From the IMG/VR virus record IMGVR_UViG_2529292921_000023: 18,296 nucleotides of DNA; one strand, 5' to 3'. Each line of letters begins with the position of its first letter. Positions within the stretch are counted from its first letter, which is position 1. The position numbers were made by a program, and so were the translations under genes. Source of the DNA: a virus. Taxonomy: Duplodnaviria; Heunggongvirae; Uroviricota; Caudoviricetes. This document shows, one piece after another, positions 9,650-14,184 of the stretch. The notes under the pieces were generated by a model. The model had not been told where the DNA came from and ran no database searches. It saw only the letters and a program-made list of their open reading frames with translations.

Positions 9650-10018
9650 TCACTTAAATTTCGTCGCACGAATAACGTCAATTCCGTTCTCGCTATATCG
9701 AAGAGGGTGCTTACCATCCCTGAGCAGGACAAAGCCTGACATCCCCTCAGGTAGCTGAGCCAGCTTCATCAACGAACGGTTGCGGGGAGACTTCTTATCG
9801 ACCTCAATGGCACACTGCTGGCCGTCTGATGATGTAACCAGGCAATCAATAAACCCTTTACGACCACCGCTAATGCTGATGCTGAAATTGCGTTGCAGAT
9901 GGTATCCCTGAGACTTGATTTTTTTCTGCATCACATAATCGAAAACGACTTTGTCATCGGAGCGAATGAATTGCTCTTCCAGGAGAGTGATTAAATTTTG
10001 CTTCAGGTCTTCACTCAT
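9650..10018 (-). CDS. VRR-NUC-like PD-(D/E)xK nuclease-fold protein
   Basis: 122 aa. GGRKGFIDCLVTSSDGQQCAIEVDKKSP resembles the VRR-NUC pattern G..G.PD.......IEVK. Confidence 0.45.
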   Translation of the reverse strand: MSEDLKQNLITLLEEQFIRSDDKVVFDYVMQKKIKSQGYHLQRNFSISISGGRKGFIDCLVTSSDGQQCAIEVDKKSPRNRSLMKLAQLPEGMSGFVLLRDGKHPLRYSENGIDVIRATKFK

Positions 10019-10267
10019 ACTTTTTTATCCATCTTGTACTAGCTTTCTGGTACAGCCGTTTTTTCAGGGGTATCCCCCTTTAGATCGAGATCTACCTAAC
10101 CTATGTACCCGTCTGTTGGAAAAGCCTGTTCCAGTGCTTCGCACTAACACACGGGCACTCCTCCCCCTCCCCTCCTCTCATTGAATTTTGTGCGTACTCT
10201 TTAACTAGTACAAAAATGCAATGAGATTTGGGATTCAGCCACCGGACACCTTTAAGCCCGGTACCAA

Positions 10268-10561
10268 TCAGGAGCGCGATTGCGTTCCTGCCAGGGGCGG
10301 CTGAGTTGTATACCCCTGTAAAGCTCTGCCCTGATTTCTCACAAACAAGCGGAGCCTTGTGTTTGCTTCGTGCCTTGCTCTGTTCTCCTTGCGGAATGAA
10401 ACAGGCTCAGCGTCAAAAGTGATTTCGTATACCTCCGCATATTTCAGGGCGACCTTCCGTCTCAGTGACGGAGGCAGCCCCTGTAACTGCTGCTGAATCC
10501 ACTCTTCGTCTGCCTGGCAGTGCCTAGATGGCATCTCTGTCTGAACGTAATTCTGGGACAT
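10268..10561 (-). CDS. Hypothetical early protein in the cII position
   Basis: 97-aa ORF 12 nt downstream of the cro-like gene on the same strand. Low-complexity C-terminus. No family recognised. Confidence 0.5.
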   Translation of the reverse strand: MSQNYVQTEMPSRHCQADEEWIQQQLQGLPPSLRRKVALKYAEVYEITFDAEPVSFRKENRARHEANTRLRLFVRNQGRALQGYTTQPPLAGTQSRS

Positions 10562-10573
10562 ACAAGCCCTTCA

Positions 10574-10846
10574 TCATTCGTTTTTCATAACTGCCGCATT
10601 TGTGGCTGTGTGACTTCTACGTAACAAATCAGGGATTGCATCTTCAGGATGGGGATAAAGATCTGGTCTTAACCCATGAGGAGTAACTTTCCATTCCACA
10701 ACTTCACATACACGCAAGACGAAACGAGCAGGAATTGTTCTTTTTGAAAACCATTGGTTCACAGCTTGCGGCGTAACGCCTAGATTTCGCGCTATGGCAT
10801 TTTGTGCAATTAGCTCACGAAGTGCGTCGTAATCATTTCCTTTCAT
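10574..10846 (-). CDS. Cro/YdaS-like HTH regulator
   Basis: 90 aa with HTH LGVTPQAVNQW and motif WKVTPHGLRPDLYP recalled as typical of YdaS-like Cro proteins. Divergent from the CI-like repressor. Confidence 0.7.
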   Translation of the reverse strand: MKGNDYDALRELIAQNAIARNLGVTPQAVNQWFSKRTIPARFVLRVCEVVEWKVTPHGLRPDLYPHPEDAIPDLLRRSHTATNAAVMKNE

Positions 10847-10980
10847 CGCAACCCACCAATCTAAACTTTATAAATTCAAGATTACATCAAGTTTAAATTA
10901 ACATGCAAGTCCACAAAAGATCGAATACACTAAAATCAAGTAAAAATTTATCGAAACCAAGTAACCAGCAAGGATTAACA
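10847..10980. promoter_or_regulatory. Immunity-region divergent promoter/operator (OR-like)
   Basis: AT-rich 134-bp spacer between divergent cro-like and cI-like genes. Repeated ATCAAGT-type motifs at 10887-10893, 10935-10941 and the variant ACCAAGT at 10956-10962. Confidence 0.5.
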
Positions 10981-11670
10981 ATGAAAAACTTAAAGAGCAC
11001 TGAAAATCGAATTACAAAGCTGCTACAGGAGAAAGGCTGGAGCCAAGCAGAGCTGGCCCGAAAATTAGGTGTCAGCGCACAGTCCGTACAGTACTGGACA
11101 ACAGGAAAAACATTTCCAAGGGGAAACCGGCTTGCCCAGTTATCCGAAATAAGTGGTTATCCGCAATCGTGGTTTTTAGGAGAAATCACGTCACGGCAGT
11201 TCTCTTCAAAGGAAAAACATCAAGCAAGAACTGACAGTGTGGTCTTTAACGTGCTCGATGTTGAGTTTAGTTGCGGCGATGGAACACATGTCCGTGGGGA
11301 CTTTATCGATGTAGTTCGCTCAATCGAGCTTGATCCTGAATATGCCCGTCGCCTTGTTGGCAATAGAGCATTTCAAAACATAGAGATTGGTAACGCAAGA
11401 GGAGATAGTATGGCTCCAACAATAGCCCCAGGAGATCTTCTTTTTCTCGATAAAACAGTGAATTACTTTGATGGTGATGGCATTTATGCTTTTTGCTTTG
11501 ATGGTGAATGCTACGTCAAAAGATTACAAAAGATAGGAAGTAAAATCATGGTGTTATCTGATAACCCAAATTACCAATCCTGGAGCATTGAAAAAGATGC
11601 TCTTGAGCTGCTTTATATCCAATCGAAGGTAATCTCATCTGTTCCATTCAATATAAATAGATTTGGTTAA
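10981..11670 (+). CDS. cI: CI-like repressor (N-terminal HTH-XRE, C-terminal LexA/S24 autopeptidase)
   Basis: HTH (WSQAELARKLGVSAQSVQYW) and S24 Ser/Lys region (GDSMAPTIAPGDLLFLD ... CYVKRL). Start placed at ATG 10981 (AAGGA 6 nt upstream) rather than track start 10903, which has no RBS. Confidence 0.85.
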   Translation: MKNLKSTENRITKLLQEKGWSQAELARKLGVSAQSVQYWTTGKTFPRGNRLAQLSEISGYPQSWFLGEITSRQFSSKEKHQARTDSVVFNVLDVEFSCGDGTHVRGDFIDVVRSIELDPEYARRLVGNRAFQNIEIGNARGDSMAPTIAPGDLLFLDKTVNYFDGDGIYAFCFDGECYVKRLQKIGSKIMVLSDNPNYQSWSIEKDALELLYIQSKVISSVPFNINRFG

Positions 11671-11732
11671 TTATTGATTATTAAAGAAAAATTTACAAAT
11701 CAAGTAAAAGAGACGCAGAAATCAATTTTTTC

Positions 11733-11811
11733 TTGACAACTCCATCAATCAAGATCTAACATCACACCATCAATTTTGACTTGATTTATTGTTAATTTTA
11801 AATTGATGGTG
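11733..11811 (+). promoter_or_regulatory. pL/OL-like promoter-operator region for the early-left operon
   Basis: TTGACA (11733-11738), 18 nt, TAACAT (11757-11762). Perfect 11-bp inverted repeat CACCATCAATT (11765-11775) / AATTGATGGTG (11801-11811) flanks a second candidate promoter TTGACT-17-TAAATT. ATCAAG-type motifs recur. Confidence 0.45.
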
Positions 11812-11816
11812 ATTCA

Positions 11817-12245
11817 ATGAAAGATCTGACAACCGCTGAGATATCGAACTTAAACCACTTCGAAAAAGAATCCTTTGCATTAAATATTGCAAATCTGGTA
11901 GGTGCTGCTCGTACTTTCCATTTAATTGATGGTGATCGCTCTAAAGAATTGGGGTTTGAAGTCATGGAGTTTGTTCATGAATACGCCCTGTCTGCTACTT
12001 ATCCATTACATAATCACATAATCAACAAACAACCAAATAAAATCCGCACCCAACGCGAAGCCTGCGGCTTAACAACCGCCGAACTCGCCAGGCTGCTCGA
12101 TCTCGATGAAGAAATTATCATCCAGTGGGAAAGCGGAGAGTACGAACCAACCATCAGCATGCTTATCCCTCTGGCTAATGTTCTTGGCTGTGATCCAATG
12201 TTGTTATTGACTGATGCTTATAAACAAAATCAGGAGGAAGCATAA
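11817..12245 (+). CDS. Hypothetical protein with C-terminal HTH-XRE domain; first gene of the pL-like operon
   Basis: 142 aa. C-terminal HTH (LTTAELARLLDLDEEIIIQWESGEYEPTISMLIPLANVLG). N-terminal ~80 aa unassigned. Confidence 0.6.
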   Translation: MKDLTTAEISNLNHFEKESFALNIANLVGAARTFHLIDGDRSKELGFEVMEFVHEYALSATYPLHNHIINKQPNKIRTQREACGLTTAELARLLDLDEEIIIQWESGEYEPTISMLIPLANVLGCDPMLLLTDAYKQNQEEA

Positions 12246-12246
12246 G

Positions 12247-12438
12247 ATGAAAATGTTCAAAGGCCTTACCAACGAACCGGAGACAGCTTTTCATCACATT
12301 GCCGTACTGCTTGAAGCGGGGTTAATCATTTCGGCTTCCGGTGATGAAGAATGTGATGAACTTTCGGATGATATCTTTTTACTGGCACAACAATACGCCA
12401 AAAGCGCATGCGATGCATTTAAGGAGCAAAGAACATGA
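12247..12438 (+). CDS. Small acidic hypothetical protein (63 aa)
   Basis: AGGAGG 8 nt upstream of ATG 12247. Track start 12214 overlaps the previous gene and is less likely. Stop overlaps the next start (ATGA). Confidence 0.5.
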   Translation: MKMFKGLTNEPETAFHHIAVLLEAGLIISASGDEECDELSDDIFLLAQQYAKSACDAFKEQRT

Positions 12439-12626
12439 TAACTCCATTAAATATTCTTGAGGAAGTGGCGGCACAAATAAAAGAGAATACATCAATGCTT
12501 GAATTTATATTTAAGAATTCGCCCGACCAAGGAGAGACAGACGATTATTTATGCTGTCTCATTCGCTCCATGAATAAGACCTGTGAAATGGCTTACGAGT
12601 ATATAGAAACACTACGCAACGAATAA
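12435..12626 (+). CDS. Small hypothetical protein (63 aa)
   Basis: AAGGAG upstream; ATGA overlap with the previous gene. Confidence 0.5.
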   Translation: MITPLNILEEVAAQIKENTSMLEFIFKNSPDQGETDDYLCCLIRSMNKTCEMAYEYIETLRNE

Positions 12627-12708
12627 AGAACACTCAGTAAAAAATCACACATAAAAACATGACGGCCTCTGGTCGTGGATTTCCACAACCAGAAAATAAT
12701 GGTGATGC

Positions 12709-12807
12709 ATGAAAAATAGAAACGCTTATAAAACCGCATTATTAATGGCTAATGCAGGATACTGGTCAGTTGCAATACTGTTTCTCAGAAAAGCATACGG
12801 GAAATAA
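12709..12807 (+). CDS. Possible 32-aa hydrophobic peptide
   Basis: Below the ORF-track size cutoff. MKNRNAYKTALLMANAGYWSVAILFLRKAYGK; weak RBS. Confidence 0.2.
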   Translation: MKNRNAYKTALLMANAGYWSVAILFLRKAYGK

Positions 12808-12810
12808 CAA

Positions 12811-13170
12811 ATGGCATGTACAACCATTTATAAAGATCGTCGCCGCATGGTAACAGCGGCACTCCGGCGGATGCAACGTAAAACAGGTAGTAATCTGCTC
12901 GTCGTTGACCTCCCGGACGGAGAAATAACAACGATAGAAATAACTGAACAGTTCATGAACCAGTTGTTATTACGATTTGAGGGTCTTACCCGTGTTGAAT
13001 ATGGACGGACGGAAGGAGAAGCAACAATCCGTACCGCATACCAGAATGCCATCGGTATTAATCAACACACGGAATATCTCACTGAATCAGGGAAACTGAT
13101 AGTGGACGGCCTTTTAAAAGAGGTTGTTGACTACGTAAAAGAGAAATATATCAGTGGAGGAATTAACTGA
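12811..13170 (+). CDS. Hypothetical protein (119 aa)
   Basis: ORF in the operon frame series; stop overlaps the next start (ATGA). Confidence 0.5.
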   Translation: MACTTIYKDRRRMVTAALRRMQRKTGSNLLVVDLPDGEITTIEITEQFMNQLLLRFEGLTRVEYGRTEGEATIRTAYQNAIGINQHTEYLTESGKLIVDGLLKEVVDYVKEKYISGGIN

Positions 13171-13379
13171 TGTCTGATTTATCCCCTCTTATACACGAAA
13201 AAGTACAGATCATTATGACGATTGAAAATGGTCAGGTAATAAATACCCGTAAAGTTCACAATAACGAGATGATTGCCAGCATGGATACCTTCTTATGGAT
13301 AGCAAAGAAAGCGGGATATCAGGTAATCGCTCCTGATCTGGAGGAAATCGGTGACATTAACAGCAATACGAATTCCTGA
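13170..13379 (+). CDS. Hypothetical protein (69 aa)
   Basis: GGAGG about 9 nt upstream; ATGA coupling to the previous gene. Confidence 0.55.
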   Translation: MSDLSPLIHEKVQIIMTIENGQVINTRKVHNNEMIASMDTFLWIAKKAGYQVIAPDLEEIGDINSNTNS

Positions 13380-13572
13380 GTGGGTGCACCTGCAGGCGGT
13401 CCGTGTTCTCCGCCAGTTCAGAGCCAGACGAATTCATCCCTGTCGTATGCACGGCTCCGGAAACCTGAGTCTGAGGGTTAATCGCCGCTGGCGGCTGCTG
13501 TCCCGAGACGGCGGCCAGAACTGGGAAGTAATGAGCCATGAACGATACAGCAAAGTTAAGGACCGGAAATGA
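13351..13572 (+). CDS. Arg-rich small protein (73 aa), GTG start, overlapping the upstream gene end
   Basis: GGAGG 6 nt upstream of GTG 13351. Basic, Arg-rich (SLRVNRRWRLLSRDGG). A competing antisense ORF is low-complexity. Confidence 0.4.
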   Translation: MTLTAIRIPEWVHLQAVRVLRQFRARRIHPCRMHGSGNLSLRVNRRWRLLSRDGGQNWEVMSHERYSKVKDRK

Positions 13573-13605
13573 ACAATAAACCTTCAAACCAAAAGGAGAG
13601 TATTG

Positions 13606-14184
13606 ATGATTAATTCAACCATTACCCCTGAACCTACATTAACAGGCATCCGTTTTGGTAATCGAATTATTGGTTATTCAACTGCGGTTCGCCAGATCGA
13701 CAACGGTAACTATGACAAACGAATTCCGGACGGGCTCGATCTGATAGCTTGCATTATGGAAGGGATTGAAAGCGGCTGGTTTATGCCGTGTATTGAAAAA
13801 CAAATCATCCTATGGCGCTGGCTTGTTGTCGCCGTGTTCATTGCTGAGGAGCAGGAGAAGAACGGGACTGTCGATGTTCAGAATGACAAGGGCGGCGTAG
13901 ATACAGCCGTTGTATACACAGGAAAACCCGGTTCAATCAGCATTTATCCATGGTCTGAGCGCTTCGCGCTCGCTAACCATATCGAGGCGGGCGCAATTGA
14001 AAAATACGGGCCTGACGTTGGCCAGCAGATGGCGCTGCGTATGTATCAGGACATGGTTGTAACTGACGAGAAATGCGGATTCAGGCTGTCAGCGATGGGC
14101 CGGGAGGGACTCAACATACTACATGACAGCTTCATTGAACTGATTCAGAAAGACGGTATGCCAGACATGCCGGTTATGCACTGA
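13606..14184 (+). CDS. Hypothetical protein (192 aa)
   Basis: AGGAG 7 nt upstream of ATG 13606. No motif recognised. Confidence 0.6.
   Translation: MINSTITPEPTLTGIRFGNRIIGYSTAVRQIDNGNYDKRIPDGLDLIACIMEGIESGWFMPCIEKQIILWRWLVVAVFIAEEQEKNGTVDVQNDKGGVDTAVVYTGKPGSISIYPWSERFALANHIEAGAIEKYGPDVGQQMALRMYQDMVVTDEKCGFRLSAMGREGLNILHDSFIELIQKDGMPDMPVMH

Follow-up and report, generated by a model that had tools for sequence, protein, structure and literature searches.

What is encoded directly after the repressor gene, at the head of the leftward early operon, in lambdoid prophages such as the one on the viral record IMGVR_UViG_2529292921_000023? In lambda and HK022, the first functions after cI at the head of pL are lambda N, HK022 Nun and lambda rexAB. 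In the 18,296-nucleotide (nt) stretch analysed here (the window), the corresponding place is taken by three closely packed open reading frames, ORF1, ORF2 and ORF3. An earlier note on this DNA had recognised none of the three proteins and had considered the first not to be N-like, and our profile and structure searches bear this out, since no characterised early regulator or antiterminator was found. We find that ORF1 joins an N-terminal helical hairpin to a C-terminal XRE-type helix–turn–helix (HTH) domain, and that ORF2 and ORF3 are free-standing hairpins related to the N-terminal domains of regulators of this kind. By analogy with known switches, the genes may specify an early regulator and headless paralogues that act via mixed helical bundles, a regulator-and-decoy arrangement that we put forward tentatively, as somewhat short of probable.

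ORF1 combines a helical hairpin with an acidic HTH domain

ORF1 (11817-12245, + strand) encodes 142 amino acids (aa), laid out as an N-terminal helical hairpin (aa ~6-68, termed class A below), a disordered linker and a C-terminal XRE HTH domain (aa ~75-130). The C-terminal HTH proposed in the earlier note is recovered by Pfam as an HTH_3 match at aa 76-127 (3.5e-11; 43.4 bits against a cut-off of 23), and AlphaFold2 predicts antiparallel helices at residues 6-36 and 40-68 (pLDDT about 80), the disordered linker and a five-helix XRE domain. Foldseek returned HTH domains only, the top matches being the DNA-binding domains of P22 c2, C.AhdI, CapH and SinR, and the TM values of the XRE domain against P22 c2, C.AhdI and SinR-N were 0.8-0.86. 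Thus, sequence and fold agree in placing ORF1 in the XRE / Cro-C1 superfamily. Profile and position together also make it a member of the phiP27 L10-like family, phrog_4836 matching aa 4-142 at 1e-58. For the N-terminal domain there was no Pfam match of any kind.

Other labels for ORF1 were considered and rejected. The name 'DicA', used in the phi467 record, corresponds to NCBIfam PRK09706, which scored 33.8 bits against a cut-off of 101 and matched the HTH part only. The label 'CII-like', attached to phrog_4836 and to the ASU11 protein, found no Phage_CII match at Pfam E<=0.1, and the gene lies in the leftward operon. An N/Nun-type antiterminator is also excluded, as ORF1 is acidic, lacks an arginine-rich motif and has no match to such proteins in Pfam, PHROG or NCBIfam; lambda N, HK022 Nun and lambda rexAB are therefore analogues by position, to which ORF1 has no similarity of sequence or fold.

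The acidity of ORF1 extends into its HTH domain. The whole protein has a net charge of -12 (pI 4.7) and the HTH domain one of -6 (pI 4.2), compared with +5 for the HTH of cI and +2 for Cro, a comparison made within this phage only. The sequence of the turn and of the first part of the recognition helix is D-L-D-E-E-I-I-I-Q-W-E-S-G-E-Y-E; in the family as a whole, E98, E105 and E110 are invariant, and D95 and D97 are present in at least 90% of members. Among solved structures, the one that matches best in sequence is that of an MBF1-like bridging factor and not of a repressor.

ORF2 and ORF3 are free-standing relatives of the hairpin

ORF2 (12247-12438, + strand; phrog_4587, 2e-33) and ORF3 (12435-12626, + strand; phrog_6882) each encode 63 aa, and both products are acidic, soluble helical hairpins without toxin motifs or membrane segments. 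For ORF3, AlphaFold2 predicts a hairpin with a pLDDT of 93, formed by helices 4-28 and 34-62. The relationship to the N-terminal domains of L10-family XRE regulators was apparent from several comparisons. The PHROG of ORF2, phrog_4587, matched aa 16-61 of ORF1 at 2.9e-7, and it also covers a 66-aa free-standing ORF of Stx2_EH2246 (1e-35) and the C-terminal half of phiP27 L08 (2e-28). The N-domain of ASU11 gp50 is 40% identical to ORF2 (E 3e-9; hhalign 95%), and that of the 223-aa regulator P0088 is 33% identical to full-length ORF3 (E 3e-9; hhalign 95.7%). ORF2 and ORF3 are thus homologous to the N-domains of L10-family regulators and are encoded next to one such regulator, ORF1.

More general searches were less informative. 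BLASTP gave no matches for the pairs ORF1-N/ORF2, ORF2/ORF3, phiP27 L10/ORF3 and P0099/ORF2. Nothing was found for ORF2 or ORF3 in Pfam, NCBIfam or PADLOC, bar one sub-threshold chance Pfam match to ORF3, and PDB sequence searches with the two proteins gave no match below E 0.7. With ORF3, Foldseek found generic helical hairpins only (EncB, ESCRT-I and Tsi2, E>0.1), and a word-indexed homologue search with ORF2 and ORF3 found only close relatives from E. coli.

Both small ORFs are real genes and evolve under purifying selection. ORF3 has a pN/pS of 0.1-0.3 against four diverged copies, and ORF2 differs from its most diverged copy by six synonymous changes and one nonsynonymous change. The two genes always co-occur, being found together in 72 of 5426 complete E. 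coli genomes. The tight coupling suggested in the earlier note holds for ORF2 and ORF3, where stop and start codons overlap (ATGA, 12435-12438), and not for ORF1 and ORF2, which are 1 nt apart (TAAgATG) without overlap. Both small genes have strong Shine-Dalgarno sequences (SDs) of their own, AGGAGG at 12232-12237 for ORF2 and AAGGAG at 12421-12426 for ORF3.

The gene arrangement is conserved and the family is modular

We detected 158 homologues of ORF1, all annotated merely as HTH proteins; those with a source name are all from E. coli, Shigella or Salmonella. Phage records with a member include phiP27 (L10), PhiR49_2, ASU11 and many Stx1a, Stx2a and Stx2d phages. A synteny survey was made of 17 loci representing seven immunity types. 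An ORF1-family regulator lies directly 3' of the repressor gene in all 17, and one or more hairpin-domain ORFs come after it every time, in the form of ORF2 plus ORF3, a free-standing hairpin of 66 aa or an L08-like protein. The class of N-domain maps one to one onto the type of repressor in every locus.

Within the family, a variable N-domain of ~60 aa (at least seven classes) is followed by a conserved HTH, RTQREACGLTTAELARLLDLDEEIIIQWESGEYEPTISMLIPLANVLGCDP, and a variable C-terminal end, which may be the tail AYKQNQEEA (paired with ORF2/ORF3), a second HTH or another tail. Phage homologues such as phiP27 L10 and L08, the Stx1a/Stx2a/Stx2d regulators (LC5678xx) and ASU11 gp50 are true homologues placed directly after the repressor. 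The L10-type proteins are 82-93% identical to ORF1 in the HTH and have the hairpin domain family in common with it; they differ in belonging to other N-domain classes, in that a second HTH takes the place of the AYKQNQEEA tail in many of them, and in having an L08-like or 66-aa hairpin gene in place of ORF2 and ORF3. A profile search of 1.84 billion representatives showed the hairpin N-terminal to one to three HTHs, free-standing in proteins of 67-88 aa and C-terminal in L08-like proteins, with few usable hairpin-only matches, the HTH columns in the profile having filled the result with generic HTH proteins. Profiles connect the hairpin classes A/B, C/F, D, E and G only in part.

The HTH-coding segment itself (~12045-12213 of the window, ~170 bp) recurs at 90-94% nucleotide identity in at least 354 of the 5426 complete E. 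coli genomes, and also in phiP27 and Stx phages, between unrelated flanks. The segment is where the mosaic repeatedly changes from the immunity region to the remaining leftward operon: this junction falls within the regulator gene, at or after the linker, and there is free recombination of the C-terminal architecture and of the genes downstream. At locus L009 (NZ_CP047378, 2072-3083), whose repressor has 151 aa and an HTH but no S24 domain, both the HTH and the hairpin of the ORF1 homologue are different, so that the junction there lies later in the gene.

The survey also revealed gaps in existing records. The Stx2_EH2246 record (LC567837) misses the 66-aa hairpin ORF (4681-4881) and a 37-aa ORF (4967-5080), and the phiP27 record misses an 82-aa helical ORF (4219-4467) in overlap with the L10 stop. 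For ASU11 gp50 (3842 as against 3875) and for the Stx2_EH2246 regulator, the true start probably lies downstream of the annotated one.

The inverted repeat belongs to predicted repressor operators

The earlier note had placed the head of a pL-like operon directly 3' of cI, and the gene order agrees: a cI-type repressor gene (10981-11670, + strand; 229 aa) with HTH_3 (7e-9) and Peptidase_S24 (8e-17) Pfam domains, assigned to phrog_4 'transcriptional repressor', is followed by a promoter. The genes 3' of cI have the same orientation as cI itself, and the order OR, cI, OL/pL and leftward operon is that of lambda. We conclude that a lambdoid prophage of the phiP27/phi467 kind begins its leftward early (pL-type) operon with the ORF1-ORF3 region. 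The promoter, of sigma-70 type, lies at 11733-11762 on the + strand as had been noted, with TTGACA at 11733-11738, an 18-nt spacer and TAACAT at 11757-11762 (10/12 in a consensus scan). In PhiR49_2 and Stx2_EH2246, two phages of the same immunity type, the -35 is invariant and the -10 reads TAATAT. Transcription is predicted to start at ~11769.

The perfect inverted repeat that had been described just downstream is present, with arms of 12 nt and not of 11: CACCATCAATTT at 11765-11776 and AAATTGATGGTG at 11800-11811, with 23 nt between them. A perfect repeat of at least 12 nt arises with P = 0.0055 in dinucleotide shuffles of the 146-nt intergenic region, and no second perfect repeat of 11 nt or more, with arms up to 40 nt apart, occurs in the window. 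Its operator-like character, proposed in the earlier note, is substantiated by two adjacent 17-bp sites that resemble those of the right operator (OR). OL-A (11769-11785, reverse complement ATCAAGTCAAAATTGAT) matches the OR site at 10935-10951 in 15/17 positions, and OL-B (11791-11807, reverse complement ATCAATTTAAAATTAAC) matches that at 10886-10902, also in 15/17. The repeat consists of the outer halves of OL-A and OL-B plus CACC/GGTG, its right arm includes part of the ORF1 SD (GGTGAT, 11808-11813), and the two sites together reach from the -10/+1 region to the ORF1 ribosome-binding site. Further upstream, the 13-mer AAATCAAGTAAAA (11697-11709, + strand), an operator-like site identical to OR 10933-10945, is the longest word common to OR and OL (P=0.002 in shuffles), and a pattern search found an operator-like 17-mer, ATCAATTTTTTCTTGAC, overlapping the -35 (11721-11737, + strand) and conserved in PhiR49_2 and Stx2_EH2246.

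These features correspond to those of a lambda/P22-type OL: multiple 17-bp sites with a motif common to OR, overlap with the -35 and +1 regions and specificity for the immunity type. The difference is that two of the putative sites here lie 3' of the -10 and extend to the ribosome-binding site, because the leader is only ~45 nt long. Other immunity types have unrelated repeats at the equivalent place, and those of L006 and L008/phiP27 are made of motifs from each locus's own OR. On this pattern we take the inverted repeat to be an operator of the immunity repressor and not a site for ORF1, nor to be specific to the ORF1-ORF3 module, and cI would be expected to bind at the predicted OL sites. 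The idea that the HTH protein might bind the repeat did not survive the comparison between loci, since a nearly identical ORF1 HTH stands behind wholly different repeats in other immunity types; autoregulation of ORF1 through the repeat is rejected on the same ground. The operator and promoter part of the locus is ordinary lambdoid biology.

An additional role for the repeat in RNA would not conflict with its role as operator, and inhibition of ORF1 translation by fold-back of the leader is conceivable, if unlikely. The + strand from 11600 to 13400 has no intrinsic terminator, either after cI or in the first 1.6 kb of the operon, which favours read-through, so that read-through RNA from pRM would hold the whole repeat. 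Its hairpin has a predicted stability of -23.8 kcal/mol (z -4.1) and buries the ORF1 SD. RNA from the predicted pL start lacks most of the left arm and folds at -12 (z -1.5); ORF1 would then be translated only once the prophage is derepressed, a scheme that we also consider improbable. ORF2 and ORF3 are provided with SDs of their own. In four of the seven immunity types, sequence-unrelated repeats span exactly the interval between the -10 and the SD, with read-through folds of -15 to -23 kcal/mol (z about -2 to -5.5), and are lost in the pL-started RNAs. One of them, the perfect 13-bp repeat of L009 (TACATTCACCTCA/TGAGGTGAATGTA), holds both the -10 and the SD and shows no likeness to that locus's own TTAGCA-type operator motif. 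Against a selected stem, the left arm is conserved in PhiR49_2 and Stx2_EH2246 whilst the right arm carries uncompensated changes, which fits protein-binding sites better. Moreover, OR-type operator motifs account for the arms in L006 and L008, an SD-occluding repeat is lacking in three of the seven immunity types, the PhiR49_2/L020 subtype has both a terminator and the repeat, and the scheme depends on a predicted transcription start. The expected correlation between the absence of a terminator after cI and the presence of an SD-occluding repeat is imperfect, and the case is weakened.

The 13-mer AATTGATGGTGAT, which comprises right arm and SD (11801-11813), is repeated exactly at 11924-11936, 123 bp downstream. 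This second copy falls in the part of ORF1 that encodes the hairpin (codons L-I-D-G-D), and PhiR49_2 does not conserve the encoded residues; an auxiliary operator half-site is one possible explanation and chance is another.

A regulator with headless paralogues

The closest parallels are to systems in which a small helical protein controls an XRE-type regulator. In Bacillus subtilis, SinI is a paralogue of the helical domain of SinR and antagonises SinR by forming a heterodimer (PMC3163267). In a module that governs lysis and lysogeny in arbitrium phages of Bacillus, the very small helical protein AimX blocks oligomerisation of the XRE-type repressor AimC, a pair likened to SinI/SinR by its authors (bioRxiv 10.1101/2025.11.23.689978). 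As in SinR/SinI (and SlrR/SlrA), the locus studied here has an XRE HTH regulator with a two-helix domain and adjacent small genes that consist of that domain alone, and the SinR DNA-binding domain is itself among the Foldseek matches of ORF1. As in AimC/AimX, it is a phage module with a very small helical protein beside an XRE-type protein. There are also clear differences. The domain order is reversed relative to SinR, with the hairpin N-terminal, and the HTH is strongly acidic; the hairpins are longer (about 25-30 residues per helix) and their classes are often mismatched; and neither ORF2, ORF3 nor the ORF1 N-domain matched the Pfam family for SinI/SinR multimerisation. AimC is the repressor itself in phages of Bacillus hosts, whereas ORF1 is an extra gene 3' of an S24 repressor, and no homology of ORF1-ORF3 to AimC/AimX was detected. 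The lack of a SinI-family match, the reversed order and the frequent class mismatch make ORF1-ORF3 an analogue of these systems and not a member, and the formation of heteromers here is putative.

If the analogy holds, cI bound at OL would keep the operon off in the lysogen, and loss of cI would lead to expression of ORF1, ORF2 and ORF3. The hairpin would serve as a protein–protein assembly domain of the four-helix-bundle type, ORF1 would act as an early regulator whose activity depends on hairpin assembly, and ORF2 and ORF3 would modulate or titrate hairpin-bearing proteins by entering mixed bundles with them, a principle that is established for SinR/SinI and that has been proposed for AimC/AimX. 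A regulatory module had been one of two suggestions in the earlier note, and the XRE fold and the paralogous small proteins leave it plausible.

Several observations weigh against such an arrangement. ORF2 and ORF3 stay the same whether the N-domain encoded ahead of them is of class A, B, C, E or G, and the downstream hairpin gene tracks the C-terminal end of the regulator, not the N-domain, so that classes are usually unmatched. This mismatch makes strict cognate pairing of the SinI kind unlikely in general, although the classes do sometimes agree, the free-standing hairpin of Stx2_EH2246 being 45% identical to the N-domain of its own regulator. The link between ORF1-N (class A) and ORF2 rests on the PHROG profile, direct hhalign comparison being weak (E 0.044). 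We found no target site for ORF1. Finally, the acidic HTH makes classical reading of DNA by the recognition helix doubtful, and with it the word 'regulator' in its classical sense.

Alternative functions

The same doubt about DNA binding leads to an alternative in which ORF1 is an HTH-fold adaptor or antirepressor that does not bind DNA, with its hairpin attached to an immunity-specific partner (cognate cI or Cro); we judge this unlikely, though worth setting out. The acidic HTH, itself conserved, would either have a conserved partner or act as a DNA mimic, which is again a doubtful proposition, as is the corollary that ORF1, being made from pL, would lock in lytic development by positive feedback. 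As members of other hairpin classes, ORF2 and ORF3 would target the partners of other immunity types, which we likewise do not expect. The charge contrast with cI and Cro, the conservation of acids in the turn and recognition helix throughout the family and the MBF1-like match all agree with an adaptor, as does the one-to-one mapping of N-domain class to repressor type when everything after the first HTH recombines freely. However, that mapping may reflect linkage alone, the N-domain lying ~150 bp from cI with no shared homology between. The fold is also a canonical five-helix XRE fold with a TM of 0.8 to P22 c2, and acidic XRE proteins that bind DNA exist, for example some HigA antitoxins.

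It is also possible, though again not probable, that the hairpins have common ancestry and no interaction, each directed at some host or phage protein, with the HTH protein an ordinary early autoregulator. Many small proteins of the lambda pL operon target individual host or phage proteins. The mismatch of classes between regulator and downstream hairpin is what such independence would give, helical hairpins are generic binding modules (the Foldseek matches being non-specific) and L08-like proteins carry the hairpin C-terminal to an unrelated domain. Against this stand the invariant synteny of regulator and hairpin gene over the surveyed loci, the tight translational coupling of the genes and the same-class pair in Stx2_EH2246.

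The other suggestion of the earlier note, an exclusion module, finds no support: a superinfection-exclusion, abortive-infection or toxin–antitoxin cassette, with an HTH antitoxin and small toxins, is very improbable, for although the position is that of lambda rexAB and HK022 nun and ORF1 has weak sub-threshold matches to the antitoxin families of MqsA and HipB and, in PADLOC, to RmrA and CapH, these matches are at generic HTH level and far under the family cut-offs, no toxin-like domain is present, ORF2 and ORF3 are soluble acidic hairpins with no PADLOC, Pfam or NCBIfam match, and exclusion genes are normally on in lysogens, where an operon behind OL operators should be off.

An extension of the regulator-and-decoy arrangement is more speculative, and we regard it as quite improbable. 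The existence of at least seven hairpin classes, mapping one to one onto repressor type, together with the carriage of headless hairpins of classes other than the prophage's own, suggests that the hairpin could be a fast-diversifying 'identity' domain of the immunity region, and that ORF2 and ORF3 are decoys against heteroimmune phages or co-resident prophages. They would then poison or hijack foreign hairpin-bearing early regulators or their immunity-specific partners. They might be made in lysogens from cI read-through RNA, in which the ribosome site of ORF1 is folded away.

The prophage and the neighbouring genes

Over 10500-13400, the window is 99.8% identical to the Stx2f-converting Escherichia phage phi467 (LN997803; Stx, Shiga toxin). 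By this similarity the prophage is an stx-negative relative of phi467, since a 310-aa ORF (4176-5108; phrog_7003), located between holin and Q (3724-5222), stands where phi467 has tRNAs and stx2f. The left end of the window is an IS21-family element (1-1286) with an IstB ATPase gene (istB, 504-1286); it resembles IS100 and abuts the prophage lysis genes. Divergent from the repressor gene lies a Cro-like gene (10574-10846, minus strand). The top Pfam match of its product is the family named 'YdaS_toxin' (5.9e-13), a misleading name here because the protein is positionally the Cro of this prophage. Rfam gave no match in 10000-14000 at E<=1.

The next gene of the ORF1-ORF3 operon, overlooked in the earlier note and without annotation in the phi467 record and RefSeq, is a 32-aa ORF (12709-12807, + strand; SD GGTGAT). 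Its product, MKNRNAYKTALLMANAGYWSVAILFLRKAYGK, is basic and hydrophobic (net +6). It is kept in four other prophages with synonymous and conservative changes, has a 37-aa homologue (...LFLRKAYGR) in Stx2_EH2246/L012 and found no match in a PHROG search. It could be a membrane-active or host-targeting small peptide. Within this ORF, the minus strand has a terminator-like hairpin and T-run (12734-12757), which could be the end of an antisense RNA, as in type I toxin–antitoxin arrangements.

Implications

In literature on phi467, phiP27 L10 and small lambdoid antirepressors, we found no functional study of genes of the ORF1-ORF3 type. What is new descriptively is the hairpin domain family, its free-standing paralogues beside the regulator, its one-to-one link with immunity type and the acidic HTH. 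The analysis thereby defines a small domain family that had not been described before, and the misleading database labels 'DicA' and 'CII-like' are corrected. As the spread of the HTH segment indicates, E. coli prophages that begin their leftward early operon with a gene set of the ORF1 type make up a sizeable group, which includes Stx1a, Stx2a, Stx2d, Stx2e and Stx2f converting phages and has no lambda-type N at this position. If the genes do work as a SinR/SinI-like switch or as an antirepressor circuit, induction would come under their influence, and with it the release of Shiga toxin, and they could mediate interactions among the many prophages of pathogenic E. coli. Should the hairpin prove to be an identity domain of the immunity region, it would represent a new layer of competition or cross-talk between prophages.

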